From positions 74,844-138,843 of the forward strand of contig NZ_KE387026.1 in the NCBI RefSeq assembly GCF_000430045.1: 64,000 nt of DNA, in the 5' to 3' direction. Origin of the DNA: Calidithermus chliarophilus DSM 9957. Its GTDB lineage: Bacteria; Deinococcota; Deinococci; Deinococcales; Thermaceae. The notes under the pieces were generated by a model. It saw only the letters and a program-made list of their open reading frames with translations. It searched no databases and was not told where the DNA came from. A program made the translations under genes and the position numbers. Shown here in pieces: positions 16,236 through 49,915 of the stretch (positions within the stretch are counted from its first letter, which is position 1; every line of letters starts with the position of its first letter).

Positions 16236-16363
16236 ATACCCGATTCGGTTAGTTCGTCCCCGAACGGCGGCGGGCTGAAAGGGCCGAAGGGAGGGCTCTG
16301 GGATTCAAAAAGATAGCCTCCGGGGCTCTTCGGATCGGATGATGATCTTTTTGAATCCGGTAT
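16236..16363 (-). mobile_element. MITE copy 1 (ATACCGG TIR family), reverse orientation, flanked by TCA/TCA
   Basis: TIRs TACCCGATTC...GAATCCGGTA; direct TCA on both sides; the right end overlaps the hemerythrin stop codon. Confidence 0.75.
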
Positions 16364-16794
16364 CAGGCCGCGCCGACGGGGGTACGGCCTCGCAATTGCA
16401 CGTCGATGTTGCAGATGTGCCCCACCAGCCAGTTTTTCAGCGTCCCGTGCAGTTCGCGCAGCATCTCGACGCTGGCCCCTCCGCGCGCTTTGTGCTGCTG
16501 GGTGAAGTCGGCGTAGAGCGCCAGGAAGCGGTCGTGCGCCTCCTTGTTCTTGCGGGCGATGGGGCAGCCCCGCAGCGTCATGCACAGCTCCTCGTAGGCG
16601 AAGTGGGTGTTGACGTAGCTCTCCAAGAACACCAAGAGGTTGTCCACCTCTTCGCGGTCCGCGGGGCTGCCGGGCGGGGTGGACTCGAGCAGGCGCTCGA
16701 GGCGGTTGACGTAGCCGACGAGGTTGCGGTGCTGCTCGTCGATGCGGGGTTCGCCGGTTTCATAGCTCGTGTTCCACTCGATCGCCATAGTCAC
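16363..16794 (-). CDS. Bacteriohemerythrin (hemerythrin HHE cation-binding domain protein)
   Basis: IDEQHRNLV...HFAYEE...HIC motifs typical of hemerythrin; 143 aa. Confidence 0.8.
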   Translation of the reverse strand: MTMAIEWNTSYETGEPRIDEQHRNLVGYVNRLERLLESTPPGSPADREEVDNLLVFLESYVNTHFAYEELCMTLRGCPIARKNKEAHDRFLALYADFTQQHKARGGASVEMLRELHGTLKNWLVGHICNIDVQLRGRTPVGAA

Positions 16795-16847
16795 GCTCCA
16801 ACGAGGCGAGTGTGACGAAAATACCGGGGAGGAATGTCCCCGGTAAT

Positions 16848-16966
16848 ACCAGGTTTGGGTGGATAGCCTCCGATCGGAGGCTATCCACCCCGACCGAAGG
16901 GAGTGCCCTGGGCTTCACAAAGATTTACCTCTGACGGATTTGAAGAGTATCTTTGTGAAGCCGGTA
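16848..16966 (+). mobile_element. MITE copy 2 (diverged; TACCAGG...CCGGTA), flanked by TAA/TAA; adjacent 24-bp mini-palindrome TACCGGGGAGGAATGTCCCCGGTA at 16822-16845
   Basis: Internal ttcacaaagat...atctttgtgaa inverted core, homologous to the ttcaaaaagat...atctttttgaa core of the other copies. Confidence 0.6.
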
Positions 16967-16996
16967 TAACGCCGTCCTGGAGGGTTGTCCGGCCGC

Positions 16997-18334
16997 TCAA
17001 TCGGCCGCTACGGGCGTCCCCAGCATCTGATCCACGAGCGCCAGGCCCTCCTCGATGACGCTGAGGCCGTGCTCGAGCTCCTCCTGGTTGATCACCAGGG
17101 GCGGGCAGACCCACAGCATGTTGAAGCGGCTGAAGGCGTAGACGTGCTTGGACTTGACGTGCCCCGCCAGCTTCTGCATCTCGGGGCTGGTGCCGTTGAA
17201 GGGGGCCAGGGGCTCCTTGGTGGCCTTGTCGCGCACGAGCTCGAGCACGCTAAACAGCCCCTTGTAGCGCACGTCGCCCACGCAGGCGTACTTGCGCTTC
17301 ATGGCCTCGAGGCGCTCGGCGAGGTAGCGCCCCTGCACCTCGGTGTTCTCGAAGAGGTGCTCCTCCTCGTAGACCGAGAGGTTGGCGACGGCGGCGGCGC
17401 AGCTCACCGGGTGGCCGCTGTAGGTCAGGCCGCCCCAGAGCATGTTCTTCTCGAAGTAGTCGGCGATTTCCTGGCTCACGATCACGGCGCCCAAAGGCAT
17501 GTAGCCGCTGGTGAGGCCCTTGGCGCAGGTCACGATGTCGGGCTTGACGCCGTAGTGCTGGGTGGAGAGCCACTTGCCGGTGCGCCCGAAGCCCGACATC
17601 ACCTCGTCGGTGATGAGCAGGATGCCGTACTTGTCGCACAGCGCCCGCAGCTTGGGGTAGTAGTCGTCGGGGGGGACCAAGAGCCCGTTGGAGCCGGTGA
17701 TGCCCTCCACCAGGATCGCCGCGATGGTGTGCGGGCCCTCCATCTGGATGACCTCTTCGATGTGGCTCACGCACTCGCGGCGGCAAGAGTCGGGGGTCTT
17801 GCCGAAGGGGCAGCGGTAGCAGTAGGGGTCGAAGACCCGCACGATACCGGGGATGCCCGGCTCCACCGGCCAGCGGCGGGGGTCGCCGGAGGCGGTCATG
17901 GAGCCCATGGTCGCGCCGTGGTAGGAGCGGTAGCGGGTGATGATCTTGTCGCGCCCGGTGAAGAGCCGGGCCATCTTCATGGCGTTCTCGTTGGCCTCGG
18001 CCCCGCCCAGCGTGAAGAAGCTCTTGGCGAGGCCCGTGACCTCGGCCAGCTTCTTGCCGAGCTTCCCGCGCGGCTCGGTGGCGAAGGAGGGCCCGGCGAA
18101 GCAGAGCTCATCGACCTGCTTCTTGATGGCCTCGAGCACCTTAGGGTGCTGGTGCCCCACGTTGATGTTGATGAGCTGCGAGCTGAAGTCGAGCCACTTG
18201 TTGCCGTCGCCGTCCCAGAACCAAACCCCCTGGGCGTGCGTCATGTGGATGGGGTTCGAGGTGCTCTGCACCGACCAGGAGAAGAGGGTGTAGTCGCGGT
18301 TCTCCTGGATGACTTCCGACGAGGGACGTTCCAT
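16997..18334 (-). CDS. Class-III (omega) aminotransferase, probable beta-alanine:pyruvate transaminase
   Basis: PLP aminotransferase class III fold (GHQHPKV, CAKGLTSGYMPLG lysine motif); genomic context with mmsA and pyd genes. Confidence 0.8.
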   Translation of the reverse strand: MERPSSEVIQENRDYTLFSWSVQSTSNPIHMTHAQGVWFWDGDGNKWLDFSSQLININVGHQHPKVLEAIKKQVDELCFAGPSFATEPRGKLGKKLAEVTGLAKSFFTLGGAEANENAMKMARLFTGRDKIITRYRSYHGATMGSMTASGDPRRWPVEPGIPGIVRVFDPYCYRCPFGKTPDSCRRECVSHIEEVIQMEGPHTIAAILVEGITGSNGLLVPPDDYYPKLRALCDKYGILLITDEVMSGFGRTGKWLSTQHYGVKPDIVTCAKGLTSGYMPLGAVIVSQEIADYFEKNMLWGGLTYSGHPVSCAAAVANLSVYEEEHLFENTEVQGRYLAERLEAMKRKYACVGDVRYKGLFSVLELVRDKATKEPLAPFNGTSPEMQKLAGHVKSKHVYAFSRFNMLWVCPPLVINQEELEHGLSVIEEGLALVDQMLGTPVAAD

Positions 18335-18388
18335 AAGGACCTCCTGTGCCTTTGTTCCCCCAATGGTAGTCCCGGGAGGCGAGGGGAC

Positions 18389-18407
18389 GCAATGGACAGT
18401 GTGTAAA
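18389..18407 (-). promoter_or_regulatory. Conserved operator-like motif GCAATGGACAgtGTGTAAA upstream of the aminotransferase
   Basis: ~60 bp upstream of the start at 18334; the same decamer as at 16164 and 37112. Confidence 0.55.
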
Positions 18408-18453
18408 AGCCGGGGTGCTTGCCCAGCGAAATTAGGAGGGCATATTATGTCTC

Positions 18454-18951
18454 ATGCAAAACGGCGAGCCCCTGATCCGCCACGTCCTGACGACCTGGGA
18501 GGTCCACAACGGCATCCACCTCGCCCTCTTCGACGCCATCTCCCCCGCCGGCTTCGAGGCCGTGCCGCTGAAGTCGCGGGGGCGCACGGTGCTCGAGCAG
18601 TTCAACCACACCGTCTCGGTGCGGCTGGGCTGGGTGCAGTACCACCGCACGGGCAAGTTCCCCAGCCGCCGCACCCTCGAGCTGCCCGAGAACGTGCGGG
18701 AAGGCATAGCGCGGTCGGGGGAAGAGGTGCGGGCCTTCCTCGAGCAAGCCCTGGGGGGCGAGGCCAAGGTGCGCAACTTCGAGGGCAACCCGGTGCGCTT
18801 CATGGGCTACCTCATCTCGCACGAGTCGCACCACCGGGGCTCCGTCGCCCTGGCCCTCAAGCAGGCGGGCCTGAAGCTGCCCGAGGAGGTGGCGATGCAG
18901 GGCTTGTGGGGCCGGTGGATGTGGAAGTCGGGCAGCGGCGGCCAGGGCTAG
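18454..18951 (+). CDS. DinB/YfiT-like (DinB_2) metal-dependent hydrolase family protein
   Basis: HNGIHLA...LISHESHHRG histidine triad spacing typical of DinB_2. Confidence 0.7.
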   Translation: MQNGEPLIRHVLTTWEVHNGIHLALFDAISPAGFEAVPLKSRGRTVLEQFNHTVSVRLGWVQYHRTGKFPSRRTLELPENVREGIARSGEEVRAFLEQALGGEAKVRNFEGNPVRFMGYLISHESHHRGSVALALKQAGLKLPEEVAMQGLWGRWMWKSGSGGQG

Positions 18952-18961
18952 CCGAAGCTGA

Positions 18962-19259
18962 GCTTTCTACTCCCGGCCTGGCTCAACCCGCCGGCGAAGC
19001 CAGATGATGAATACCGCATTGGGGTCGGGTAGATATACCACGTTGTAGGGAAACTTCTTCATCTGCACGCGCCGAATCCCCACCGGGTGGATCTCGGGCG
19101 CGGCTTCGGGGACAGGTGGATGCCCGCCAGAAGCTCCCGGAAAGCGGCGACGAACTTCTGTCCCAGTCCTGGCGAAAGGTTCCGGTAGTGTTCGGGGGCT
19201 TGGATGAACTCGAGCCGAGCCTCAGGATGAAAAACCTCAGCCGAGCCGTGACTCGGCAT
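18962..19259 (-). pseudogene. ParE/RelE-family toxin, frameshifted (N-terminus in one frame to ~19120, C-terminus in the -1 frame ending 18962)
   Basis: N-terminal part MPSHGSAEVFHPEARLEFIQAPEHYRNLSPGLGQKFVAAFRELLAGI. C-terminal part in another frame AAPEIHPVGIRRVQMKKFPYNVVYLPDPNAVFIIWLRRRVEPGRE. Both resemble ParE. Confidence 0.5.
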
Positions 19260-19461
19260 CGCGCAGGACTTCCTCGACCGGAATTCCCTTCGCCTTGCCG
19301 CTGCGAAGTTCTTCAGCCCGGCGGACCGCCACCTCGAGCCAAGCCCGCTCGTACTCCTCGGGGCTGAGGTCTTCCAAGCTGTCAAGCAGCCACCGGGCCA
19401 GGTCAGCACGGTCTTTGTAGTCCAAGTCCAGGGCCTGCTCGAGCACCTGCTCCTTGCTCAC
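19237..19461 (-). CDS. Addiction-module antitoxin (TIGR02574-like, RelE/ParE partner)
   Basis: MSKEQVLEQALDLDYKDRADLARWLLDSLEDLSPEEYERAWLEVAVRRAEELRSGKAKGIPVEEV matches the putative addiction module component family. Confidence 0.7.
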   Translation of the reverse strand: MSKEQVLEQALDLDYKDRADLARWLLDSLEDLSPEEYERAWLEVAVRRAEELRSGKAKGIPVEEVLRDAESRLG

Positions 19462-19472
19462 GGGTTTGTTTT

Positions 19473-19631
19473 ATACCGGATTCAAAAAGATAATCATCCG
19501 ATCCGAAGAGCCCGGAGGCTATCTTTTTGAATCCTAGAGCACACCCCTCCCTGACGGTCGGCGAAGAAAGCGTATCCCTTCGGTCGGGTTAGTCCGTCAC
19601 CGTTCGGTGACGAACTAACCGAATCTGGTAT
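19473..19631 (+). mobile_element. MITE copy 3, flanked by TTA/TTA
   Basis: TIRs ATACCGGATTC...GAATCTGGTAT; internal palindrome gattcaaaaagat...atctttttgaatc. Confidence 0.75.
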
Positions 19632-19641
19632 TACGCTACCC

Positions 19642-20352
19642 CTACCGCTTGAGCAGCTCGAGCGCCACCCACAGCCCCAGCCGGCGTTCGGTGCTGTCGA
19701 GGTCGCCCAGCATGCCCTGGAGCTGCTCGAGGCGGTAGTAGATGCTCTGCCGCCGCACCCCGAGCCGGCGTGCGGCCTCGGCGATGTTGAACTGCGAGGC
19801 GAGCAGGGCTTCGAGCGTGGAGAGCAGCGTCGAGCGCGGGCGGCTGGGCAGGGAGAGGATGGGCCCGAGCTGGCGCTGGAGGAAGCCCTGGCTGCGGCCG
19901 GTCTCGATCAGGGCGTCGAGAAGGGCCTGGAGCAGGGGCTCCTCGGCCTTGGGGCCGTGGGGGCGCAGGATGCGCTCGTGGGCGGCGCGGGTGAGGTCGG
20001 CGAAGCGCACCTCTGAGCGGAAGGCCAGGATGGGGAACTCGAGCAGCCGCGCGGTCTGCAAGAGCTCGGCGGGCACCTCCTGCATCCACTGGACGAGCTC
20101 GAGGGCCAGCCCGTGCGCCCCGGCCTGGGCCAGCGCGCGCAGGTAGGCGACCTGGGCCTCGGGCGTGGCGCGGGCGAGCTCGAGGCCCGTGCTCAGGATC
20201 AGCTCGCCCCCCGACAAAAAGCGCCAGGCGTCCATGACCTCCGCGACGTGGACCCAGGTGACGATCTGGTCGAGGCGGGAGTGGCCGGAGAGCAGTTCGG
20301 CCCCGGCGAAGGCGGGCAGCTCGAGGATCTGGCGCAGGGTGGGCAGGCTCAT
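19642..20352 (-). CDS. PucR/CdaR-family transcriptional regulator (short form)
   Basis: C-terminal FNIAEAARRLGVRRQSIYYRLEQLQ is a PucR-type HTH; start ATG 20352. Confidence 0.7.
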   Translation of the reverse strand: MSLPTLRQILELPAFAGAELLSGHSRLDQIVTWVHVAEVMDAWRFLSGGELILSTGLELARATPEAQVAYLRALAQAGAHGLALELVQWMQEVPAELLQTARLLEFPILAFRSEVRFADLTRAAHERILRPHGPKAEEPLLQALLDALIETGRSQGFLQRQLGPILSLPSRPRSTLLSTLEALLASQFNIAEAARRLGVRRQSIYYRLEQLQGMLGDLDSTERRLGLWVALELLKR

Positions 20353-20387
20353 GGTCGGGCGACACTCGAGTCTACGGCAAAGGGGGC

Positions 20388-22058
20388 TCAACCCCCCGCC
20401 AGCAGGCGGCGGCTCACCCGCCACAGCAGCTCGGGCAGGTGCTCGAAGGCGTAGGGCGCGTGCAGCCGCTCGGTGAACTGGTGGAAGTCGCGCCCCCAGG
20501 GGCCGATGTTGACGGCGGGAAGGCGCAGGGCACCTGCGAAGTCGAAGCGCCAGACGGGCCCGAAGGCCGGGGTGTTGGCCTGCATGGCCGCCACGCCCTC
20601 GGCGCTGTCGGCGCTGGCGAGGAAGCTCAGGTCGGAGATGCCGGTGAAGAAGGGGCGCACGCTGAAGCCCAGCCCGGTCTCCCGCGCCATGCGCCCGGCC
20701 TCCTCCTCCACCACCCGCCGCAGTAGCCGGTGGGCGGGGTCGGCGGGCTCGAGCGCGGCGATGGGGTAGTGCAGCGAGCCGAAGGCCAGCACCACCGCAG
20801 GGCCGGTCAGGCCGCTGTGGTCCCAGGCCCACTCGCACAGCCGGCGGCTGATCTGGGTGGGGGTCGCGCCGCCCTGGGCGAAGAGCTCGTCGCGGAGGGC
20901 GGCCAGGCGTTCGACGACCCCTTCCCCGCTATGTTCCCGTGCCGCCTGCAGCACCTCGGCGAAGGTGTACACCCCCACCTGCCAGACCGGCCCCGCAGGC
21001 AGCGGGTGGCCCAGGGCGGCGGCCCGCTCGAGCAAGACCCGCTGCCGCCGGGACCACTCCTCGAGCGCCCCCTCCACGGCCTCCTGCACCAGCCGCCGCC
21101 ACAGCTCGAGCACCTCGAGCGGGCTGCGCCGGGCCGAGAGCTGGTTGTAGACGCACCAGGCCCGGCCCGGCGTGGTCACGTCGTAGTGGGTCTTGAGGTC
21201 GAGGTGCTGCAGGCACACCGGGGGCGGGGCCACCTCGCCTTCGGCCTCGTCGGCCAGGTCGGGGTGGGCCTCGAGGCGGTAGGTGATGGCGGCGGCGAGG
21301 TAGGCGGCGCCCAGCCCGTCGAGCGGGTAGGCGGCGTGGGTCTCGCGCCCGATCACCAGCACGCTGGGCAGCAGCTTTCCCACGCTGCCCAGGTAGGCCG
21401 CACGGCCCAAGGTGCCGTCCCCCGCGTCGTTGGTGGCGTCGAGGTTGAGGGCGGCCACCAATTCCAGGCCCCCCTCCGCCAGCTCGCGCAGCCGCGCCGC
21501 CGCCGAGCGCATGCCGTGGGAGCTGTTCTCCTCGTCCGGGGTGGCGACGAGCAGGAGGTTGCCCACGCGCCCGGGGTCCTCGGCGTGCTCGAGCAGCACC
21601 GCCAACCCCGCCGCGATCCCGCTCTTCATGTCGAGCACGCCCCGGCCGGGGAGGAACTCGCCGCCGCTCAGGTCCTCCAGCGCCTTGCGGTCGCTCTCGG
21701 AGCGGGCGTTGGCCGCCAGCCACTCCCGCAGGCGCGGCAGCAGGGCCTCGGGGTCGCAGGCCCAGGGCTCGAGCTCTGTGTAGTTGGCGGTGCTCACCAC
21801 GTCGTAGTGCCCGGCCAGCACCACCGTCCGGGCGCCCGATCCGCGCACCAGGGCGAAGAGGTTGTAGCGCTCGCGAGGGTCGCCCTGGGTGCGCTCGAGC
21901 CAGAGGTCGTGGGGGCTGGCCTGGAAGTAGGGGTGCTTCGCCAGCAGGTCGCGCAGGAAAGGGGCGAAGTCGCGCTCGCCCGGGGTGTCGGTGACGCTGG
22001 GTTGCTGGACCAGGGCCAGGGTGAGGGAACGGGTTCGGTCGTGCCAGCGCGAAGGCAT
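20388..22058 (-). CDS. M20 family metallopeptidase (RocB-like)
   Basis: GHYDVVST, DMKSGIAAG, PDEENSSHG motifs of peptidase M20. Confidence 0.7.
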   Translation of the reverse strand: MPSRWHDRTRSLTLALVQQPSVTDTPGERDFAPFLRDLLAKHPYFQASPHDLWLERTQGDPRERYNLFALVRGSGARTVVLAGHYDVVSTANYTELEPWACDPEALLPRLREWLAANARSESDRKALEDLSGGEFLPGRGVLDMKSGIAAGLAVLLEHAEDPGRVGNLLLVATPDEENSSHGMRSAAARLRELAEGGLELVAALNLDATNDAGDGTLGRAAYLGSVGKLLPSVLVIGRETHAAYPLDGLGAAYLAAAITYRLEAHPDLADEAEGEVAPPPVCLQHLDLKTHYDVTTPGRAWCVYNQLSARRSPLEVLELWRRLVQEAVEGALEEWSRRQRVLLERAAALGHPLPAGPVWQVGVYTFAEVLQAAREHSGEGVVERLAALRDELFAQGGATPTQISRRLCEWAWDHSGLTGPAVVLAFGSLHYPIAALEPADPAHRLLRRVVEEEAGRMARETGLGFSVRPFFTGISDLSFLASADSAEGVAAMQANTPAFGPVWRFDFAGALRLPAVNIGPWGRDFHQFTERLHAPYAFEHLPELLWRVSRRLLAGG

Positions 22059-22086
22059 GGCGCTACGATACCCCGACGCAGGGGCG

Positions 22087-22419
22087 TCAGGGGCCGGCCT
22101 CGAGCCGCACCCTGACCCTCTGCCCCGCCTCGAGGCCCTCCGCCTTGCGAACCCGGTCTTTCAGCGGGAGGACGTACCGGCCGTCCTTAGGCCACAACGA
22201 GGTCTTCCACTCGGTCTTTCCCACGCGGACGTTCACGGGGATCATGCCCCAGCCGTAGGTCAAAAACCGCTCGGCGCCCTTGATGGCCTGGCTCTGCTCC
22301 TGGGGGACGGTGACGAAGTAGAAGGGGGCGGGGCCGCGCCACTCCCAAATCTCGCCGCTGAACTCCAGGCCCACCGGCTCACCCCCTCCCCCCGGCCTCA
22401 CCACGCCTCCTGCCGCCAC
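22087..22419 (-). CDS. DUF1905 domain protein
   Basis: EWRGPAPFYFVTVPQ...YGWGMIPVNVRVGKTEWKTSLWPKDGRYVLPLK matches DUF1905; start uncertain. Confidence 0.55.
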   Translation of the reverse strand: MAAGGVVRPGGGGEPVGLEFSGEIWEWRGPAPFYFVTVPQEQSQAIKGAERFLTYGWGMIPVNVRVGKTEWKTSLWPKDGRYVLPLKDRVRKAEGLEAGQRVRVRLEAGP

Positions 22420-22925
22420 ACGCCCCAGACCAGCTTTTCCTCCTCCTCCTCGCTCATCACGTAGCCCATCGCCTTGAGCGCCAGCTTGATCTGGCCGAAG
22501 TGATAACCCTCGTGCCAGAGCATGTGCTGGAGGAGCAGGAGGGGATGGTCGTAACTGGCGTGCTCGCCTTTCATGGGCTGGCCGCTGTGCAGGCGGTCTT
22601 TCACCGCTTCGCCGACGGCTCTAGCGCTGTGCTTCAGGGCCTCCTCGATGCGGCCGGGGTCGCGCTCGGGCAGCCGCTCCTCCCCCTCCCGGCGGAACAG
22701 CGAGGACAGGCTTCGGGCGAACTCGGGGGCGGTATGGGAGAGCCAGAAGAGCCGGGCCTGGTGGAGGTGGGAGAAGGTGAACGCGACGGAAGGGCTGCCC
22801 TCCATCGGCCGGGCGTCCATCCCGCCCTCCGGCAGCGCGTGGAGCAGGTTGAGCAGGATGGTGTTGCTGCGGTCCCACGAGTCCAGCAGGGCCTCGAGCA
22901 GGCCTGAGTCGGGCGCTTTTACCAT
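22398..22925 (-). CDS. DinB_2 family protein (second paralog)
   Basis: FSHLHQARLFW...LWHEGYHFGQ motifs. Confidence 0.7.
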   Translation of the reverse strand: MVKAPDSGLLEALLDSWDRSNTILLNLLHALPEGGMDARPMEGSPSVAFTFSHLHQARLFWLSHTAPEFARSLSSLFRREGEERLPERDPGRIEEALKHSARAVGEAVKDRLHSGQPMKGEHASYDHPLLLLQHMLWHEGYHFGQIKLALKAMGYVMSEEEEEKLVWGVWRQEAW

Positions 22926-23030
22926 GACGACCCCCTGTTCGCTTACGCAGTAAACGTAACAGGTATTACGATAGCAGCATATCCCGAGCCCCGCAACCCC
23001 TGGCGGCGCAGCGGCTTGGGAAGCTGGAAG

Positions 23031-24275: not shown

Positions 24276-24285
24276 TCCTCCGAAA

Positions 24286-24320
24286 AAGGGGGGCGAACCT
24301 CGAGGTTCGCCCCTACGTTC
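24286..24320 (-). terminator. Intrinsic terminator-like hairpin (GGGGCGAACCTCGAGGTTCGCCCC + T5) directly upstream of the RBS of the 23031-24275 gene
   Basis: On the minus strand the stem is followed by CCTTTTTCGGAGGAGTGATG, so the hairpin plus T-run abuts the SD. Confidence 0.5.
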
Positions 24321-24360
24321 GCGGTTGGACTAGGGACGATCCTGGGGATCGTCCGCTGGC

Positions 24361-38121: not shown

Positions 38122-38350
38122 GGCCGGGGCCATCCAGCGAACGGGGCGGGTGCGTATATCCTGGTAGCCCTCCCTCCCTTTTCCGGCCGGTGCGTCGTGA
38201 GGGCGTTCACCATATTTGATAAAGCAACGCTCAAGTTCCCTAAGTGTGGCCTCTGACCCTATTGACGGGGAGGGGGGTTGTAGAATCCGAATAAGTCGTT
38301 CTTTCCCGCCGTGGAGCGACGGTTTGGTAGGCGGGACATGGAGGAAGAGA

Positions 38351-40728
<2,378 letters not shown>

Positions 40729-40729
<1 letters not shown>

Positions 40730-40864
40730 TACCGGATTCAAAAAGATAATCATCCGAACCAAAGAGCCCCGGAGGCCATCTTTTTGGACCCCAGAGCGCA
40801 CCCCTCCCTGACGGTCGGCGAAGCAAGCGTCACCCTTCGGTGACGAACTAACCGAATCGGGTAT
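40729..40864 (+). mobile_element. MITE copy 4 (shorter), flanked by TAA/TAA; the left TAA is the lon stop codon
   Basis: ATACCGGATTCAAAAAGAT...GAATCGGGTAT. Confidence 0.75.
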
Positions 40865-40883
40865 AAGTCTCCCGAACAAAAAC

Positions 40884-40912
40884 AGCGGCCCCGGTATTGA
40901 ACCGGGGCTTTG
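40884..40912 (+). terminator. Intrinsic terminator for lon (GCCCCGGT-attgaa-CCGGGGC + TTTGCCTTT)
   Basis: GC stem followed by a T-rich tract. Confidence 0.55.
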
Positions 40913-40921: not shown

Positions 40922-40985
40922 GTAGGGGCAGGCACGAGACCTGCCCCTACAGCGTCTTGCGTCTTGCGTTTTGCGTTTGGCTCGA
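40922..40985. repeat. Hairpin GGGGCAGG-cacgagac-CTGCCCC + TACA + GCGTCTT heptamer tract (composite repeat, partial copy)
   Basis: The same hairpin + heptamer module is at 44757-44795. Confidence 0.6.
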
Positions 40986-40987
40986 CG

Positions 40988-42508
40988 TCACTTCTTGATG
41001 CTCACCAGCTCGCTCAGGATGCTGTCCAGCGAGCCCACGTTGATGCGCTCGATCTTCTCCGAGATGCGCTCCAACACCTCCAGCTCCTTCAGGCGCAGGG
41101 CGATGGGGTTGTCCTCCATCACCTTGGCGGTGTTGAGCATGCTGCGGGTGGCGGCGGTCTCCTCGCGGCGGCGGATCACGTTGGCCTGCGCGGCCTTCTC
41201 GGCCTCCACCACCCGCGAGAGGATGGCCTTGATCTCGCCGGGCAGGATGATGTCCTTCACGCCCACGCTATCGACCTCGAGGCCGTAGCCCTCGGTCTTG
41301 CGGGCGATGTAGGCGGCCACCTCGCGGTCGATGAGGCCCTTGTCCTCCAGCAGCTCGTCGAGGGTGCGGGTGCCCACGGCGGCGCGCAGGCCGAACTGCA
41401 GCTCCTTGTAGAGGTAGCCCTCCACGTCGGCGAGCTTGGCCTTGGCGGCCACGGCGTCGGTGACCTTGTAGCCGGCGGTGAGGTTGAGGCGCAGGGGCAC
41501 CTTGTCCTTGGTGAGGATCTCCTGGCCCGAGACCTCGAGGGTCTGCAGGCGGGTGTCGAGCACCTCGGTCTTGAGGGCGCGGCCGAAGACCCACCAGGCG
41601 TGCAGGCCGGGGCCCAGGGTCTCGCGGAAGGCGCCATCCACGTAGAGCAGGCCCACGTGCTGCGCGGGCACCTCGCGCACGTGCAGGTGCTTGAGGGTGA
41701 GGTGGGCCACCTCGGGCAGGCCGCTCACCAGCTCGGCGGCGAGCGCGGGGCTGAGCTTGAAGTGCTCGAGGGTGTCGAGCACCTCCACCTCCACGCCCTT
41801 CCAGAACAGCTTGCGGCTAGCGGGGGGCAGCACGGCGATCACCTTGCCCTTGTGGCGCACCAGGGCCACCTGGGCGGCGCCGAGCTGCACCGACTCGCAG
41901 TACTGGGCCACGAAGCCGGGGTGGCGCTCGAGCAGCACGTCCTCGAGGGGCAGGTTGGGCACGGGCTGGGTGCGGTCGTAGGTGTGCACGGTGATCTTGC
42001 GCTCGTAGACCCAGAAGCCGTAGGTGCCGGGCTCGAGGGGGCGCACGAAGTTGCCGCGGTCGTAGAGCAGGCCGATCTGCGACTCGGCGACCTGCACCAT
42101 CTGCAGGCCCGCCAGGCTCTTGTCCTTGAGCAGCTTGGCGTGCTCGGCGGGGAGCTCGAAGCCGGCCTCGAGGTCGAACACCTGCGCCTCGACCTCCACG
42201 AAGCCCTTCCAGAAGGCGCGGAGCTGGTTGGGGCCGACGGTGATCCAGCCCTGGCCCAGCCGCACCAGCGCCGCCTGGGCGGGGCCGGTCTTGACCACGG
42301 TGAAGTGCTCGGCCAGCACGTCGGGGCGGGCCTTGAGGAGGAACTCGAGGTTGGGAATAGTGGCCTCGGGCTCGCTCAGGTCGTACTTCTGCACGCTCCA
42401 GCCCTGGCCCAGCAGGCGGTGCAGGCCGGGCATGAGCACCGCGCGGAAGTCGCCCCAGCGGGAGAGCAGGCCGCGCTCGTGCTGCTTGATACGTAGGCTC
42501 TTGAACAT
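40988..42508 (-). CDS. SPFH/band-7 (stomatin/flotillin-like) domain protein with ~280-aa N-terminal region containing two extra SPFH-N-like repeats; no TM segment
   Basis: C-terminal VKDIILPGEIKAILSRVVEAEKAAQANVIRRREETAATRS is a typical SPFH tail; GLLYVDGAFRETLGPGLHAWWVF plus two similar N-terminal segments (IGLLYDRGNFVRPLEPGTYGFWVY; RGLLSRWGDFRAVLMPGLHRLL). Confidence 0.65.
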   Translation of the reverse strand: MFKSLRIKQHERGLLSRWGDFRAVLMPGLHRLLGQGWSVQKYDLSEPEATIPNLEFLLKARPDVLAEHFTVVKTGPAQAALVRLGQGWITVGPNQLRAFWKGFVEVEAQVFDLEAGFELPAEHAKLLKDKSLAGLQMVQVAESQIGLLYDRGNFVRPLEPGTYGFWVYERKITVHTYDRTQPVPNLPLEDVLLERHPGFVAQYCESVQLGAAQVALVRHKGKVIAVLPPASRKLFWKGVEVEVLDTLEHFKLSPALAAELVSGLPEVAHLTLKHLHVREVPAQHVGLLYVDGAFRETLGPGLHAWWVFGRALKTEVLDTRLQTLEVSGQEILTKDKVPLRLNLTAGYKVTDAVAAKAKLADVEGYLYKELQFGLRAAVGTRTLDELLEDKGLIDREVAAYIARKTEGYGLEVDSVGVKDIILPGEIKAILSRVVEAEKAAQANVIRRREETAATRSMLNTAKVMEDNPIALRLKELEVLERISEKIERINVGSLDSILSELVSIKK

Positions 42509-42509
42509 C

Positions 42510-43017
42510 GGAGTTCACCTCCTCCTTCGGGCGCGTGCCTCCCCAAGGTCGCAGGCACGCAGGATATTCGCACGGGATTGCTCCCGGTTGGGGCAGAAAA
42601 GGCCCTGCCTGGGACTCCCACAGCTACGGAGCGGGCGAAAGGACGAGCGCTCGTCCTTGGCAGCGTTTGCAGCAGGCCGGATTAAGGGCTCGGGGCGGCC
42701 TCGAGCTTCGCCCGAAGGCTCGGCCCGGAGGCTCTCCTCCGCCCAGATGCGGTGTTCCCGCAGGCCGCACCGCGCGTGGCGAACCAGGCGCGGATCTGGC
42801 CGGGGGAAGACGCGCACTCGGGCGCTGCTGTCCCACGCTCGCCGGGTCGTTCGCTGCTGCCCCCTAGGGGCGAGCCCTTCGGGAGCCGGGAGCGACCCAT
42901 GCAGGGTTTGTGCTGCGCCTCGCGGCGCGGTGAAGGATTTGAACCTTCTCGGCTTTCGCCTTTACCCAAAAGACACCTTTTCAGGGTGTTTGACCCACTC
43001 CGATTACGAGTCGGAAG
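42510..43017 (-). other. ~500-nt GC-rich non-coding region between the tRNA-like genes and the SPFH gene; contains a tRNA 3-prime-half-like fragment (GAAGGTTCAAATCCTTC-ACCGCGC) at 42915-42945; candidate structured RNA or element scar
   Basis: No credible ORF on either strand; several GC hairpins; no RNase P P4 motif (GGAAAGUCCGG) and no tmRNA tag frame seen. Confidence 0.3.
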
Positions 43018-43088
43018 GTCAGGATGCGGGATTCGAACCCGCGACTGCCGGAGTGAGCTCCGGTGCTCTGCCACTGAGCTAATCCTGT
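43018..43088 (-). tRNA. tRNA-like gene #1 (degenerate: 1-72 mismatch, 6-nt anticodon loop GCTCAC, no CCA)
   Basis: ACAGGAT-TA-GCTCAGTGGCAGAGC-A-CCGGA/GCTCAC/TCCGG-CAGTC-GCGGGTTCGAATCCCGC-ATCCTGA; D- and T-arms are canonical, the anticodon arm is not. Confidence 0.4.
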
Positions 43089-43160
43089 GGTGCACGATGT
43101 GGGATTCGAACCCACGCCCTCGCCCTGCACGGGCGCGCTCTGCCGCTGAGCTAATCGCGC
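43088..43160 (-). tRNA. tRNA-like gene #2 with encoded CCA; anticodon arm folds as 5-bp stem + 5-nt loop GUGCA (possible Cys-GCA-like) rather than a canonical 7-nt loop
   Basis: GCGCGAT-TA-GCTCAGCGGCAGAGC-G-CGCCC/GTGCA/GGGCG-AGGGC-GTGGGTTCGAATCCCAC-ATCGTGC-A-CCA; acceptor pairs 7/7. Confidence 0.5.
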
Positions 43161-43290
43161 GGCGGTACGTCCGGCTGCTTTCGGCGGTACACCCTCCGCG
43201 AAGCGCGGGGGCGCCAGCCAGGCCTGCAGAGCCTGGGCCTTTGCCTCCAGGAACCCGACTTTCCCGGCGTCTTAGCAGACGCAAGAACAG

Positions 43291-43319
43291 ATGGTAGCAT
43301 TCGAATGCTACTTTAGCAA
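43291..43319 (-). promoter_or_regulatory. Putative promoter for the tRNA-like genes (TTGCTA -17- TACCAT) whose spacer is a perfect 18-bp palindrome GTAGCATTCGAATGCTAC (43294-43311)
   Basis: Read on the minus strand; the palindrome exactly fills the -35/-10 spacer. Confidence 0.45.
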
Positions 43320-43427
43320 GCCCCCCAGAACTGGGATAATCAGGGCCATGGGTCGCGTCATCGCTTTCGTGGTTATTACGGCACTGGTCCTGATCGCCTG
43401 GTTCGCGCTGCTGCACCGCTACGGGGG

Positions 43428-44309
43428 CTAAAACTTCGCCAACAGCCGCCGCGCGTACAGCGGCGCGTAAAAATAGGCGGCCGAGCCGAACCCGGTGAGC
43501 GCGTAGCCGCCGGGGATTTCCTTGAGGTAGTCCCGGTCGAGGCGGTAGCGAACGCTGCTCCAGCTCGAGCGCCACTCCGGCCGGTACCCCAGCAGTTGCT
43601 CGGCGCCCGAGAGCAGCCACTCGACCTCCTGCGGCCGGATCTGGTGGGGCGAATAGCGGTCCTGGTGCGGCAGGTAGCTCCCGCCCAGGCTGTGCCCGGC
43701 CACGTAGACGCCGTAGGAGCGGGCCTGCTTGAAGTGCTCGTGGGTGATGAGCACCGAGCCCGGCGTGAAGCGCCCCCCGAGCCCGGCCAGGTGGGCCCCG
43801 CTGGCCCCGCCGGCATAGACCAGCACCTCGCCCGTGAGGTTCCGCCCGTCCTCGAGCCACAGCGTGCTCCCCTCGAGGCGCTCCACGCTGGCCCACACGA
43901 TGTCCAGGCCCTCGGCCAGGCGGTGCAGGAGCGGGGTGGACTCGAGCCAGCCCGCGCTCTGCAGGTACAGGCCCTCCTCGAGCCACTTGTGGGGGATGCC
44001 GCGCCCCTCGAGCCGCGCCTGCCACGCCTCGCGGTCGGGCCTAGGCACCGGGCGCAGGATGCCCCGGCGCACGGGAGTGAAGCGGGGGTAGAAGCCCCAG
44101 AGGGCCTCGAGGGCCTCCTCGGCCTCGGGGGCGACCGCTCCGCGCTTGCCCCGCACCGGGTTGAGCAGGGGATCGGGCACCCGGCTCGCGTCGCCCAGCT
44201 CCCGGCTGACCACCCGCACCCGGTGCCCCGCCTCGTGCAGGAGCCGGGCCGCGGTCAGGCCCGCGATGCCCGCGCCCAACACCACGATCCCGGCGTCCGG
44301 CTGGCTCAC
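43428..44309 (-). CDS. FAD-dependent oxidoreductase (short, amine-oxidase/ThiO-like fold)
   Basis: GIVVLGAGIAGLTAARLL dinucleotide-binding motif; 293 aa. Confidence 0.6.
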   Translation of the reverse strand: MSQPDAGIVVLGAGIAGLTAARLLHEAGHRVRVVSRELGDASRVPDPLLNPVRGKRGAVAPEAEEALEALWGFYPRFTPVRRGILRPVPRPDREAWQARLEGRGIPHKWLEEGLYLQSAGWLESTPLLHRLAEGLDIVWASVERLEGSTLWLEDGRNLTGEVLVYAGGASGAHLAGLGGRFTPGSVLITHEHFKQARSYGVYVAGHSLGGSYLPHQDRYSPHQIRPQEVEWLLSGAEQLLGYRPEWRSSWSSVRYRLDRDYLKEIPGGYALTGFGSAAYFYAPLYARRLLAKF

Positions 44310-44321
44310 GGCTGCGACGGC

Positions 44322-44681
44322 TCAGGCCTGTTTAGGGTAGAAGACGTAAACGGCGTCTTCCTTGCGGCAAAGGTCGCGGCTGGCGAGGAGCTCGAGCGTC
44401 TGCCGGGCTTGCTCCAGCGGCATCCCCACCGTCTGGGCAAGCTGCTCGGCGGTGATCTTCCCCCCCTTGCGCCAGGCGACCTGCATCGCCACGCGCTCGC
44501 GCGCGGCGGGACCCATGCCCCCGAGGTCGAGCCGGAAGTTCCACCTCAGGGTCAGCCAGCCCGCCAGGAGGGCGAGGAGGCTCGAGACGGTAAAACTCGG
44601 GAGGTTCCAGCGAAAGGTGGCCAGGCTCATGGCGAAAATCGCCGCCCCAACAAGCCCGGCGATGAGGAAACGCGGTTGCAT
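44322..44681 (-). CDS. Small membrane protein (2 TM + soluble tail), hypothetical
   Basis: MQPRFLIAGLVGAAIFAMSLATFRWNLPSFTVSSLLALLAGWLTL; start ATG 44681 chosen. Confidence 0.45.
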   Translation of the reverse strand: MQPRFLIAGLVGAAIFAMSLATFRWNLPSFTVSSLLALLAGWLTLRWNFRLDLGGMGPAARERVAMQVAWRKGGKITAEQLAQTVGMPLEQARQTLELLASRDLCRKEDAVYVFYPKQA

Positions 44682-44756
44682 GGGTTCAACATACCGCCAG
44701 GAGGCCCCTAAGGCTAGGGGAAAAAGGGCAGGCGCTAGGGGGAAAAGGGCAGGCAC

Positions 44757-44795
44757 GGGGGCCTGCCCCTACAAGGTTTTGCGTCTGGTGTTCGA
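44757..44795. repeat. Hairpin GGGCAGGCAC-ggggg-CCTGCCCC + TACA + heptamer stub (composite repeat, partial copy)
   Basis: Matches the 40922-40985 module. Confidence 0.6.
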
Positions 44796-44796
44796 C

Positions 44797-46137
<1,341 letters not shown>

Positions 46138-46224
46138 GTAAACCTCAGGGGCTTGCCGGAGGGATTCCGGGGCCGCGAAAAAGGAGCGGCAGGGCCGCCA
46201 ACGTTCTCAAGTGTAGCAAAGCGA

Positions 46225-46420
46225 TGAGCTTTAAGCTGTCAGCCCTCAGCCGTCACCTATCAGCTCGTGGCCCGTGGTGAAACCCCTCCCGTGGGGAGGG
46301 TTTATCCCCCCTAACCCCCCTTGCTAAGGAGGGGAACATGGCGTTTGGCGTTTGGCGTTTGGCGTTTGGCGTCTTGCGTCTTGCGTCTTGCGTTTGGCTA
46401 TCAGCTATCGACCATCGACA
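46225..46420. repeat. Composite intergenic repeat, copy B (inverted relative to copy A): GTCAGC tract, GGGAGGG hairpin, CCCCTTGCTAAGG, GGCGTTT x4 + GCGTCTT x3 heptamers, CTATCAGC tract
   Basis: Direct sequence comparison with 8470-8672 and 55775-55985. Confidence 0.75.
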
Positions 46421-46554
46421 CCCCAAATGTGCTCGCTCGGGCATTCACCCGGAGACAAATCCGGTATGAAAAACGAATGCGAGCCAATTCATGCCTAGTG
46501 CCCTGCCGTCTTCCCGGCGTTGCCCTCGGCTTCTGCAGGGGTGCTGAGTAGGGT

Positions 46555-47499
46555 ATGGAGCGCGAACCTCCGGCCCGCTCGAGCCTCCCCCACCCCAGGC
46601 GGGGCGCCGCTTGGCTGGCGCGGCAGGGGGCCAAAGACCGCGCCGCGCTGCTGGTGATGCTCGCACCCTACCTGATCGGGACCGCCGTGCTCGTGGTGGT
46701 GCCTGCGCTGCTGTCGCTGGTCATCGCCTTCACCCGCTACGACGCGCTGGGGGCTCCGGTGTGGGTGGGGCTGGACAACTTCCGGGCCCTGGGGGAGGAC
46801 TCGCTGTTCTGGACGGCGGTGCGGAACTCGCTGGTGTTCGTGCTGCTGGCGGTGCCCCTGCGCGTCCTGGGGGCGCTCGCGCTGGCGCTGCTGCTGCAGA
46901 GGCCGGGGCGCGGGGTCGGGCTCTTCCGCATGGCGGTGTTCTTTCCCACCGTCGTCCCCGACGTAGCCTACGCCCTGATCTGGCTGTGGATCTTCAACCC
47001 CGTCTACGGGCCGCTCAACCTGGCGCTCGAGGCTTTGGGCCTGCCCGTCTCGCCGTGGCTGGCCGAGGGCAGCACGGCGCTGCTCGCCATCGTGATCATG
47101 GCGGCTTTCCAGATCGGCGAGGGCTTCGTGGTGCTGCTGGCCGGGCTGCAGAACGTGCCCGAGGAGTACTACCAGTCGGCGGCGCTGGACGGCGCCCGGC
47201 GCTGGCAGCAGTTCCGCTTCATCACCCTCCCGCTGCTGGCCCCCTGGCTGCTGCTGCTGACGCTGCGCGACGTCATCCTGAGCGCGCAGAACACCTTCAC
47301 GCCCGCGTTCTTGATGACGGGGGGCGGGCCCTACTACGCCACGCTCTTTCTTCCCCTCCGCATGTACCAGGAAGCTTTCGACTCCTTCCGCTTCGGCACG
47401 GCCGCCGCGATGATGCTGCTTTTGCTGCTGGGCGTGGGGCTGTTGCTGCTGCTGGTCTACCGCGTGGTGCGGGGCTGGGGGTACAGCGATGAGCAGTGA
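46555..47499 (+). CDS. Sugar ABC transporter permease (MalF/UgpA-like)
   Basis: LLVMLAPYLIGTAVLVVVPALLSLVIAFTRYD and EAA-loop region; 314 aa. Confidence 0.8.
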   Translation: MEREPPARSSLPHPRRGAAWLARQGAKDRAALLVMLAPYLIGTAVLVVVPALLSLVIAFTRYDALGAPVWVGLDNFRALGEDSLFWTAVRNSLVFVLLAVPLRVLGALALALLLQRPGRGVGLFRMAVFFPTVVPDVAYALIWLWIFNPVYGPLNLALEALGLPVSPWLAEGSTALLAIVIMAAFQIGEGFVVLLAGLQNVPEEYYQSAALDGARRWQQFRFITLPLLAPWLLLLTLRDVILSAQNTFTPAFLMTGGGPYYATLFLPLRMYQEAFDSFRFGTAAAMMLLLLLGVGLLLLLVYRVVRGWGYSDEQ

Positions 47500-48370
47500 G
47501 CAGCACCGGGCTTTGCGCGGGCTGGCTCGAGCGCTGCGCTTCCTGCTGCGGCTGGCGGTGGCCGGGCTGTTCCTGCTGCCGTTGTGGTGGGTGCTGGTGG
47601 CCTCCCTGCGGCCCCTGGGGCTGCCGCCCTCCCCCACCCTCGAGTGGCTCCCCGACCTCGAGGGCTGGCGCAACTACGCGCGGCTGTTCGAGACAGTCCC
47701 CCTCGCCAACCAGCTCCGCAACTCGCTGTTCGTGGAGCTGTTCGCGGTGCCCCTGACCGTGCTCACCGCCTCCTGGGCGGGCTTCGCCATGGCCCTCTCG
47801 AGGCCCCCCCTGCAGCGGCGGCTGGTGATCCTGGCGGTGCTGCTGATGATGGTGCCCACCACCGCACTGTGGCTCACGCGCTTCCTGCTGTTCAAGAACC
47901 TCGGCCTCATCGACACCCCCTGGGCCCTGATCCTGCCCGCCGTGGCCGGGACCAGTTCCTTCTACGTGCTGCTGTACTTCTGGACCTTCCGCCGCCTGCC
48001 GCGGGAGATGCTCGAGGCCGCCCGCCTCGACGGGGCCGGGGCGTTCACCCTCTGGGCCCGCGTGGCCATGCCGCTGGCGCGGCCCACGAGCCTCACCGTG
48101 GCCGTCCTGGCCTTCGGCTACTACTGGAGCGACCTCACCTCTCCCCTGCTCTACCTGCGCTCGGAGGCCAACTACACCCTCCCGGTGGGCCTGCAGGTGC
48201 TCCAGCAGATGGACTCCACCAACTGGTCGCTGCTGATGGCGGCGGCAGTGGTTATGCTGTTGCCTGTCCTGTTGCTGTTTTTGATCCTTCAGCGCTTTTT
48301 GGGCTTCGACGGGCAGCTCTTCCGTGACTGGACGGCACGGCTGGGCGGGAGCAGCAAGGGCCCATACTGA
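47489..48370 (+). CDS. Sugar ABC transporter permease (MalG/UgpE-like)
   Basis: EAARLDGAGAFTLWARVAMPLARP EAA motif. Confidence 0.8.
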   Translation: MSSEQHRALRGLARALRFLLRLAVAGLFLLPLWWVLVASLRPLGLPPSPTLEWLPDLEGWRNYARLFETVPLANQLRNSLFVELFAVPLTVLTASWAGFAMALSRPPLQRRLVILAVLLMMVPTTALWLTRFLLFKNLGLIDTPWALILPAVAGTSSFYVLLYFWTFRRLPREMLEAARLDGAGAFTLWARVAMPLARPTSLTVAVLAFGYYWSDLTSPLLYLRSEANYTLPVGLQVLQQMDSTNWSLLMAAAVVMLLPVLLLFLILQRFLGFDGQLFRDWTARLGGSSKGPY

Positions 48371-48384
48371 TCAGGAGGAAAGCG

Positions 48385-49677
48385 ATGCTGCGGAAACTGC
48401 TCTACATCGGCCTGGTGTTGGTCGCGGGGGGGTTGCTGGTACGGGGGGTGGGGGGGCAGGCCACCGCCCAGCAGGCCGCGCCCAGCGGGAGCTTCACTTT
48501 CATGATCTTCGGCGAGCCCGCCGAGAAGGAAGCCTACGACAAGCTGATAGCCGCATTCTCCCAGCGCTACCCCCAGGTCAAGGTCGAGGTCCTCTACATC
48601 CCCAGCCAGACCTCCTACCGCACCCGCCTTGCCGCCGACCTCGCCGCCGGCACCCCCGCCGACGTGTTCTTGCTCAACTACCGCCGCTACGCCCAGTTCG
48701 CCGCGCGGGGCGTCCTCGAGCCCCTCGACGCCTACGTGGCCCAGAGCAAGGTGATCAAGCTCGCCGACTTCTACCCCGAGGCGGTGCAGCCGTTCTACTA
48801 CAACAAGCGGTTGATGGGCATCCCGCAGAACCTCTCGAGCCTGGTGGTCTACTACAACAAGAACCTCTTCGACAAGGCCAAAGTGCCCTACCCCAAGCCG
48901 GGCTGGACCTGGAACGACTTCCTCCAGACCGCCAAGGCCCTCACCAAGGACACCGACGGCGACGGCACCCCCGACCAGTTCGGCCTGGGCACCGAGGCCA
49001 GCATCTTCCGCGTGGCCCCTTTCATCTGGCAGAACCGGGGCGACTTGGTGGACGACCCCGAGAACCCCAAGCGGCTCACCCTCGACGCCCCCGCCACCAA
49101 GGAGGCCCTGCAGTGGTTCATGGACCTGCAGGTGAAGCACAAGGTGGTGCCCAACAAGCTGCTGGAAAAGGCCCGCCCCAGCGAGGACCGCTTCCTCGAC
49201 GGCACGCTGGCGATGTTCCTCAACAGCCGCCGCGGCGTGCCCACCTACCGCGACATCAAGGACTTCGACTGGGATGTGGCCCCGCTGCCCCGGGGCAAGG
49301 AGCAGGCCGGCATCCTCCACGCCGACGCCTTCTTCATGGCCGCCGCCAGCCGCAACAAGCCCGCGGCCTGGGCCTTCATCGAGTTCGCCAACTCGAGGGA
49401 GGGCCAGACCATCCTGGCCCAGTCCGGTCGCACCGTCCCCTCGCTCAAGAGCGTGGCCCAGTCGCCCGCCTTCCTCGACCCCAACAACAAGCCCCGCAAC
49501 AGCCGGGTCTTCCTCGACACCATCCCCTACATCCGGGCGGTCCCCCTGATGGAGACCTGGGCCGACATCGAGACGTTGGTCTCGGAGGACCTCGAGCGCG
49601 CCTTCCACGGGGACGTGTCGCTGGAGGAGGCCATCCGGACCGCGACCAACCGCACCCAGCGGTTCTTTCCCAAGTAG
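48385..49677 (+). CDS. Sugar ABC transporter substrate-binding protein (family 1 extracellular solute-binding protein)
   Basis: Signal peptide; SBP_bac_1-like; 430 aa. Confidence 0.8.
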   Translation: MLRKLLYIGLVLVAGGLLVRGVGGQATAQQAAPSGSFTFMIFGEPAEKEAYDKLIAAFSQRYPQVKVEVLYIPSQTSYRTRLAADLAAGTPADVFLLNYRRYAQFAARGVLEPLDAYVAQSKVIKLADFYPEAVQPFYYNKRLMGIPQNLSSLVVYYNKNLFDKAKVPYPKPGWTWNDFLQTAKALTKDTDGDGTPDQFGLGTEASIFRVAPFIWQNRGDLVDDPENPKRLTLDAPATKEALQWFMDLQVKHKVVPNKLLEKARPSEDRFLDGTLAMFLNSRRGVPTYRDIKDFDWDVAPLPRGKEQAGILHADAFFMAAASRNKPAAWAFIEFANSREGQTILAQSGRTVPSLKSVAQSPAFLDPNNKPRNSRVFLDTIPYIRAVPLMETWADIETLVSEDLERAFHGDVSLEEAIRTATNRTQRFFPK

Positions 49678-49693
49678 TCCCCCAAAAGCAACC

Positions 49694-49915
49694 GCCCTGG
49701 TTATACCGGATTCAAAAAGATAGTCATCCGATCCGAAGAGCCCCGGAGGCTATCTTTTTGAACCCCAGAGCACACCCCTCCCTGACGGTCGGCGAAGAAA
49801 GCGTCTCCCTTCCAAGGGGCGCTACCGCCCTCCGCCACGCGGATAACTTCGGTCGGCCGCCCCGCCAAGGCGGGGCGGCGTCACCCTTCGGTGACGAACT
49901 AACCGAATCGGGTAT
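49694..49915 (+). mobile_element. MITE copy 5 (longest, ~70-bp internal insertion), flanked by TTA/TTA
   Basis: ATACCGGATTCAAAAAGATAGTCATCCGATCCGAAGAGCC...GACGAACTAACCGAATCGGGTAT. Confidence 0.75.

Follow-up and report, generated by a model that had tools for sequence, protein, structure and literature searches.

A dispersed family of miniature transposable elements with T-N-A target duplications in Calidithermus and Meiothermus, and its probable IS630-type partner

Correia elements (Neisseria), RUP, ERIC and Nezha (cyanobacteria) are intergenic repeats of 100–200 bp that carry terminal inverted repeats (TIRs), form stable hairpins and are co-transcribed with genes. The Correia element duplicates TA at its target. 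A family of MITEs (miniature inverted-repeat transposable elements) that has the same general features is described here from a stretch of 64,000 nucleotides of Calidithermus chliarophilus DSM 9957 (contig NZ_KE387026.1, positions 74,844 to 138,843; hereafter the window), in which five copies were located. The family differs from Correia, RUP, ERIC and Nezha in sequence, host phylum and target, and no report of these four from Thermaceae was returned by the literature searches. Comparison of empty and filled sites, which was also used for Nezha (PMC3184786), demonstrated that the element transposes and duplicates three base pairs of the form T-N-A (N, any base). The nearest analogues at the phylum level are the small noncoding repeats (SNRs) of Deinococcus radiodurans, which occur between genes in hundreds of copies and are short, mosaic and modular in build; T-N-A duplications are not described for them in that report (PMC1978522). 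The distribution, insertion sites and structure of the family were evaluated, and the transposase that probably mobilises it was sought among known families of insertion sequences (ISs).

Copies, relatives and empty sites

The bounds of the five window copies, each counted from TACC to GGTA, are given in Table 1. All five had been listed in a preliminary description of the window and were recovered both by reading of the sequence and by a profile search. Moreover, the direct triplet reported there at every copy (TCA, TAA, TTA, TAA and TTA) was found in each case. The earlier bounds agreed with the present ones to within a base, one base of the duplication having been included, except for copy 5, the start of which had been placed at 49694, 10 nt too far to the left. 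The copies share the start TACCGGATTCAAAAAGAT and the end CGAATCKGGTA, and the reverse complement of these appears on the plus strand for copies 1 and 2. The left end (18 nt) had 7 matches in the window and the right end (22 nt) had 4, at up to three mismatches, whereas 0.00 matches were expected in shuffled sequences for either end. The TIRs and the internal palindrome named in the preliminary description are real, and chance similarity of the TIRs was ruled out. A profile hidden Markov model built from 34 family members detected exactly these five copies and no others in the window; a sixth candidate at 22930-22975 had no support in this search. The possibility that copies 1 and 2 formed a composite transposon around the hemerythrin gene was ruled out, since the two copies have separate duplications and their outer flanks are unequal. 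The TIRs are 10 bp long (TACCSGATTC...GAATCYGGTA), and the terminal TACC and GGTA were invariant when 51 copies of 120-135 bp were aligned.

Table 1. Positions of the element copies and of other features in the window (numbered from its first letter; loci on other contigs are named).
Feature	Position	Strand	Remarks
MITE copy 1	16237-16362	-	126 bp; TCA at 16234-16236 and 16363-16365
MITE copy 2	16847-16966	-	120 bp; TAA at 16844-16846 and 16967-16969
MITE copy 3	19474-19630	+	157 bp; TTA at 19471-19473 and 19631-19633
MITE copy 4	40730-40863	+	134 bp; TAA at 40727-40729 and 40864-40866
MITE copy 5	49704-49914	+	211 bp; TTA at 49701-49703 and 49915-49917
Hemerythrin gene	16363-16794	-	Pfam PF01814; gene at 16363-16788 in the open reading frame 16363-16794; TGA stop is the target of copy 1
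lon	38216-40729	+	Pfam Lon_C, LON_substr_bdg, AAA; gene at 38351-40729 in the open reading frame 38216-40729; TAA stop is the target of copy 4
Bidirectional terminator-like hairpin	40887-40909	.	downstream of copy 4
Antitoxin-like open reading frame	19237-19470	-	PF09720 Unstab_antitox
SPFH/Band 7 gene	40988-42508		downstream of lon
Three tRNA genes	43018-43160, 50622-50695	-	Rfam
Heptamer arrays	7188-7237, 8462-8608, 40952-40982, 46283-46424, 55771-55929, 58954-58996, 61581-61609		also L061 2735-2815

The family extends well beyond the window. When species-representative genomes were scanned for the left end, at least 97 loci were obtained; about half of them were real, and all of the real ones lay in Thermaceae (Meiothermus taiwanensis, M. 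hypogaeus, M. rufus, Calidithermus roseus and several metagenome-assembled genomes, MAGs). Loci below 55% G+C, which were chance matches in low-GC genomes, were set aside together with one chance match above 55% (L013). The right end was used to scan metagenomes and gave 120 further loci. In total, at least 94 unique complete copies were collected across Meiothermus, Calidithermus and hot-spring metagenomes. Most of these were 120-211 bp long (range 120-292), and they were rich in hairpins and contained no open reading frame (ORF). The two 3-bp flanks were identical in 72 of the 94 copies (TTA 27, TAA 21, TGA 17, TCA 5 and 2 others), and 70 of the 72 were T-N-A, whereas the chance identity of two flanking triplets at this base composition was about 2%. 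Furthermore, a T-N-A triplet stood on both sides in 82 of the 94 copies. No family members were found in a scan of viral contigs, and the element had no match in Rfam. Full-text searches gave no description of a MITE in Meiothermus, Calidithermus or Thermus and no mention of the repeat sequence. Short, non-coding, bounded by TIRs and dispersed in many copies, the repeats are MITEs, and their suggested novelty held in the literature and in Rfam. The family is real, apparently undescribed and apparently specific to the genera Meiothermus and Calidithermus.

Mobility was established at four independent loci, at which a single triplet was found wherever the element was missing. The site of copy 1 is empty in C. 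terrae (L224), which has a bacteriohemerythrin 96% identical to the hemerythrin of the window, and reads ...ggccTGAggcc... with a single TGA. On contig L227, the site of copy 1 is likewise empty with a single TGA, and the site of copy 2 is empty with a single TTA. For copy 4, the filled site in the window reads ...aggggcgTAA(copy 4)TAAgtctcccgaac..., and the empty site in L220, where Lon is 99% identical, reads ...aggggcgTGAgtctcctgaac..., with the same terminator hairpin directly after the lon stop. Lon and the gene spacing in L221-L223 are as in L220, and the site sequence was read in L220 alone. The fourth locus is the converse case, since positions 55970-55972 of the window are a single unoccupied TAA and the orthologous site of C. 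roseus reads ...gctgTAA(126-bp element)TAAgccg.... Hence, the empty sites in relatives hold the single T-N-A that a 3-bp duplication requires, and the presence of the element varies between relatives. A duplication of TA only, with an element of the form CC...GG or with variable extra bases, was ruled out, since no TA occurs in the empty TGA sites and since near-identical IS copies described below would need different ends. The window organism stands close to C. terrae, which has an orthologue of copy 2. This copy is therefore old, being common to the window genome and C. terrae, whereas copies 1 and 4 are recent, since they are missing from close relatives.

Stop codons and neighbouring genes

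The relation of the copies to genes was evaluated with a simple codon-usage gene caller, which was trained on the collected loci and found those genes of the window that have Pfam support. All 94 copies lay outside predicted genes, and in the first set all 45 copies were intergenic (p = 1.5e-26 against all T-N-A sites). A predicted stop (TAA or TGA) was the exact site of 14 of the 94 copies, against 8.1% expected under uniform insertion over intergenic and stop-codon T-N-A sites (p = 0.019); in the first set, the value was 10 of 45 (p = 0.0017). In the window, stops were hit by two of the five copies. The TGA of the hemerythrin gene (TCA at 16363-16365 on the plus strand) is the right triplet of copy 1, and the TAA of lon (40727-40729) is the left triplet of copy 4, which lies between this stop and the terminator. 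The use of these two stops as targets had been pointed out in the preliminary description and was confirmed; its wider statement that the family repeatedly sits on stop codons holds for lon and hemerythrin and is overstated for the family, in which the excess is about 1.8 to 3 fold. The association with stop codons is genuine yet modest. Convergent intergenic regions were also over-represented among the insertion sites (31 of 77, compared with 18% of all intergenic regions).

The T-N-A triplets are TAA or TGA on one or the other strand and nothing else. Landing on stop codons thus follows from the T-N-A target rule in combination with selection against insertions that harm genes, and the encoded protein is unaltered because the duplication regenerates the stop. 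Copy 2 has the stop of an aminotransferase gene on one side and a terminator-like hairpin with a T-run on the other, and it is located upstream of the hemerythrin gene; copy 1 likewise stands upstream of a terminator-like hairpin. Copy 3 follows the stop of a PucR-family regulator gene at a distance of 8 nt and is 10 nt upstream of an antitoxin-like ORF (GTG start at 19461). Copy 5 lies between convergent genes, with the nearest stop 38 nt away.

Several further features of these neighbourhoods were observed. The start of the antitoxin-like ORF is within 3-12 nt of copy 3, so its promoter or 5' untranslated region (UTR) must be inside or beyond this copy. The hemerythrin gene stands between aminotransferase and aldehyde dehydrogenase genes both in the window and in C. 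terrae, is absent at the syntenic locus of a Thermaceae MAG (L061 2708-2835), and in L227 is found behind a LacI-type regulator gene instead. Downstream of lon, the SPFH/Band 7 gene of the window has only a short 3' remnant in L220 (3890-4000), which is either a deletion or an assembly gap, with Lon 99% identical. Two of the three tRNA genes are adjacent and are placed between the Band 7 gene and an FAD-oxidoreductase-like gene.

Candidate sources of the transposase

An IS with the junction of the MITE was found on the plasmid NZ_CP021131.1 of M. taiwanensis WR-220, a finished sequence that also carries copies of the MITE. Five copies of this 1106-bp IS, 99.8-100% identical to one another, were present, and all five had a 3-bp duplication (TAA/TAA, TAA/TAA, TTA/TTA, TAA/TAA and ATA/ATA). 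Its ends are TACCAAATCT.../...AGTTGGTA or, in longer form, TACCAAATCTCCCTCGAGGTGACAC and, as the reverse complement, TACCAACTCTACGACGAGGTGACAC. The element has two ORFs (Pfam HTH_23/29/33 and DDE_3, respectively), which are joined by a -1 frameshift at GGAAAAAGGGGGG, and the fused transposase scored 144.7 bits on NCBIfam NF033545 (IS630 family; cut-off 100). A second score of 149.7 bits was obtained on the same model within this clade. Relatives were detected at transposase identities of 81% (L230, TTA-TACCAAATCTCAG...CTGGTA-TTA), 66% (L234, TAA-TACCAAATTGCGG...TTGGTA-TTA), 57% (L238, TTA-TACCAATTCTGAG...GTCGGTA-TGA) and 47% (L239/L240, TCA-TACCAATCGCAAG...GATTGGTA-TCA, in a host of 78% GC). 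The junction TNA-TACC...GGTA-TNA of the MITE was therefore reproduced in five distinct IS630-family elements. The 1106-bp IS and its relatives resemble the MITE in their termini, 3-bp T-N-A target and host lineage, and in the shared plasmid. They differ from it in that the MITE has no transposase and in that, beyond TACC, only the purine or pyrimidine class is common to both, over six bases. On the strength of these shared features, the probable partner of the MITE, which would mobilise it, is a transposase of the IS630 type from this clade.

Several points weigh against this assignment. No IS with the full 10-bp repeat TACCSGATTC was present among the matches listed, and the IS630-type ends share only TACC and R-R-N-T-Y-Y with the MITE, at 8-9 of 18 positions. 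The canonical duplication of IS630/Tc1-mariner elements is TA and not TNA (PMC8533490). Variants are known in the IS630-Tc1-mariner group, namely TATA, TAA and TAAA in Fot and Sailor elements (PMC7386202, PMC8533490), and the clade found here departs from TA just as the MITE does and is itself atypical. Full-text searches gave no description of an IS630 element with a T-N-A target. Some metagenomic IS copies (L232, L234, L238) have unequal flanks such as TAA/TTA and TTA/TGA, perhaps because a multicopy IS was assembled as a chimera or because copies recombined. Neither an IS630-type nor an IS5-type transposase is encoded in the window. In addition, the stop-codon statistic rests on our own simple gene caller. 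Finally, the TIR of ISDge6, an IS5-family element, matches the MITE end about as well as the IS630-type ends do (10 of 18), so similarity of the ends alone cannot settle the family.

A direct parent was also sought within about 1.4 Mb of MITE-bearing sequence from Thermaceae, by means of terminal-repeat pairs 450-3000 bp apart. Three pairs had matching flanks, namely L149, L187 (585 bp) and L204 (2644 bp), and no transposase was found between the MITE ends of the two pairs that were read, L149 and L168. The L149 pair encloses an ordinary aminotransferase gene. The L168 pair, with unequal flanks (TAA/TTA), encloses an integrase fragment and no DDE transposase. An all-against-all comparison of ORFs for repeated transposases yielded only syntenic genes and ABC ATPases. 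An IS4/IS701-like element with two ORFs on NZ_CP021131.1 was rejected as the parent, because its ends (CAGACTTGACCG) are unlike those of the MITE.

An alternative takes up the preliminary description, where the T-N-A duplication was taken as the hallmark of the IS5 family (IS1031/IS427-like) and the MITE as a derivative of such an element. The MITE would then owe both its origin and its movement to an IS5-family element (IS1031/IS427/ISL2 type). The duplication does fit, since 3-bp TNA or TWA duplications are shared with the MITE by the IS1031 and ISL2 groups of IS5 and by the Tourist MITEs of PIF/Harbinger. Moreover, IS5-family elements with flanks of this type are present in Meiothermus (NCBIfam NF033580; L098 39240-40100 and L202 1-800, with flanks TTA/TAA or TAG). 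The TIR of ISDge6, AGACCtGCTGCGAAAcaAGG, also supports the alternative, because its agreement with the A-end of the MITE at 10 of 18 positions was obtained at an offset of 1 nt (PMC7674623, PMC9456066); this IS5/ISL2 element of Deinococcus geothermalis always duplicates TCA (PMC7674623). However, the termini of these IS5-family elements are AGACC or GAGC, as opposed to TACC in the MITE, and those examined in Meiothermus have the ends GAGC.../...GCAGGCTC. Given their different ends, the M. taiwanensis transposase of the IS5 family and its homologues were discarded as the parent, and no autonomous IS5-type element with MITE ends was found in about 1.4 Mb of MITE-bearing Thermaceae loci. The junction TNA-TACC was found instead in the five IS630-family elements. 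The T-N-A duplication is thus not diagnostic of IS5 here, because the IS630-family clade makes the same duplication. The attribution to IS5 is probably wrong, and descent from that family is judged unlikely. Apart from the question of parentage, the Meiothermus IS5 elements constitute a second T-N-A-associated type of IS in the same genomes.

Hairpins, proposed mechanism and known systems

The element is composed of two hairpin modules. Module A has a conserved 15-bp stem, GGATTCAAAAAGATA/TATCTTTTTGAATCC, and a loop that varies and measures about 30 nt; a linker with the conserved sequence TAGAGCACTCCCTTCGGTCGGG leads to module B, which has a stem of about 15 bp, GGTTAGTTCGYCRCC/GGYGRCGAACTAACC, and abuts the other end. 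The structure was specified by hand, since the automatic consensus of RNAalifold was incomplete, and 94.9% of the cells were paired in it. In helix B, both sides had changed at 12 of the 15 pairs with 91% of the cells still paired, and 0 of 500 shuffles reached the observed values. Two forms of the B loop were seen, TTCG and CGAA, each the complement of the other. In alignment columns 121-125, the reverse-complementary forms CCG-TTCG-G and CCG-AACG-G contrast, for example, L130, L134 and L100 with L128 and L136; to judge from the alignment, the two forms look like a flip-flop inversion of the centre of the palindrome. Copy 2 belongs to a divergent subfamily in which both hairpins were rebuilt by compensatory changes. 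Copies 3-5 are members of a subfamily with an extended linker, and copy 5 has extra hairpin-rich internal sequence. Size variants of 156 bp and about 195 bp were also seen, as were mini-elements of 67 bp (L027 5151-5217 and L061 148-214), each of which consists of module A alone, TACCGGATTCAAAAAGATA...TATCTTTTTGAATCCGGTA, and has its own T-N-A duplication. To judge from these module-A elements, the 126-bp MITE may be two hairpin modules fused into one. A second class of intergenic repeats was noticed in the course of this work, consisting of tandem degenerate heptamers (GCGTCTT/GCGTTTG, CGTACGT and GATAGCC; Table 1). These arrays often adjoin a hairpin of the CCCCCCTTAGCAAGGGGGG type, and many gene boundaries carry them, both in this genome and in its relatives.

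The conservation of pairing bears on a further explanation, according to which the elements are kept mainly as structural signals in RNA or DNA, for example as stabilisers of the 3' UTR, terminators or regulatory hairpins, and transposition is only their historical origin. The compensatory changes in hairpin B agree with this explanation, as does the fold of copy 2 as RNA, which is far better than that of shuffled sequences (-68.6 kcal/mol, z = -10.8). In addition, copies 1, 2 and 4 lie between a stop and a terminator-like hairpin and are probably transcribed. However, the B hairpins of copies 1 and 4 have decayed (fold z = -1.5 and -1.1, respectively), and the presence of the element differs between close relatives. 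The mismatches in hairpin B on the aligned strand were C-A more often than G-T (31 compared with 14), which gives no support for selection on RNA of that strand. The upkeep of the palindrome and the flipping of the loop from TTCG to its complement are possible at the level of DNA, and the lack of an Rfam match speaks against the explanation as well. The orientation relative to neighbouring genes was unbiased (36 and 29), so a selfish DNA element fits better than a strand-specific RNA function. Maintenance chiefly as a structural signal is consequently regarded as improbable. That the repeats are immobile, as REP-like palindromes spread by other means or as products of chance similarity, would suit their intergenic and palindromic nature and nothing else, and it is scarcely credible in view of the excess of end matches, the precise boundaries with duplicated triplets and, above all, the four pairs of empty and filled sites, which already refute it.

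The findings are compatible with the following mechanism, in which the MITE, a non-autonomous DNA transposon, would be served in trans by a DDE transposase. The enzyme would be supplied by the IS630-family clade described above (Tc1/mariner-like, with HTH and DDE_3 domains). It would cut T-N-A with a stagger of 3 nt, and repair would then produce the duplicated triplet that was seen by comparing empty and filled sites. Stop codons qualify as T-N-A targets, and the duplication restores the stop and leaves the protein unchanged. An element inserted between a stop and its terminator would become part of the 3' UTR; for copy 4, transcription within the 3' UTR of lon is predicted because the terminator hairpin lies downstream. 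Copies persist between genes only, for the most part at the 3' ends of genes. In its complete form, the proposal is put forward tentatively, with a little less than even confidence. It holds that an undescribed bacterial IS630 clade that cuts T-N-A with a 3-nt stagger may have spawned Stowaway-like MITEs in Thermaceae, the hairpins of which are kept by compensatory change and loop flipping and the target rule of which permits landing on stops without a change of protein.

In a phylum where none appears to have been described, the study provides a MITE family that is well documented and for which empty and filled sites are proven, and the elements can mark recent changes in the genomes of Meiothermus and Calidithermus. 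The study also shows that a 3-bp T-N-A duplication is an unsafe diagnostic of IS5-family origin, given that an IS630-family clade does likewise, and it offers a simple mechanistic reason for insertion exactly on stops at no cost to the protein. If the link with IS630 is true, the clade would represent a Tc1/mariner-like transposase that is thermophilic and has an altered target rule, a point of some interest both for the mechanism of transposases and for thermophile genetic tools.

Duplications of 3 bp also occur in the eukaryotic Zator superfamily, which is related to the bacterial TP36. The Stowaway MITEs of plants are eukaryotic elements that duplicate TA and are mobilised by mariner-like (Osmar) transposases. 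This mobilisation was shown experimentally, whereas the partner of the present MITE is proposed from its termini and target. Stowaway elements are also short and hairpin-forming, and they share little beyond the terminal bases and the target with their Tc1/mariner-type partners. By analogy, the relation of the Thermaceae MITE to the IS630-type elements would resemble that of Stowaway to the mariner-like elements.

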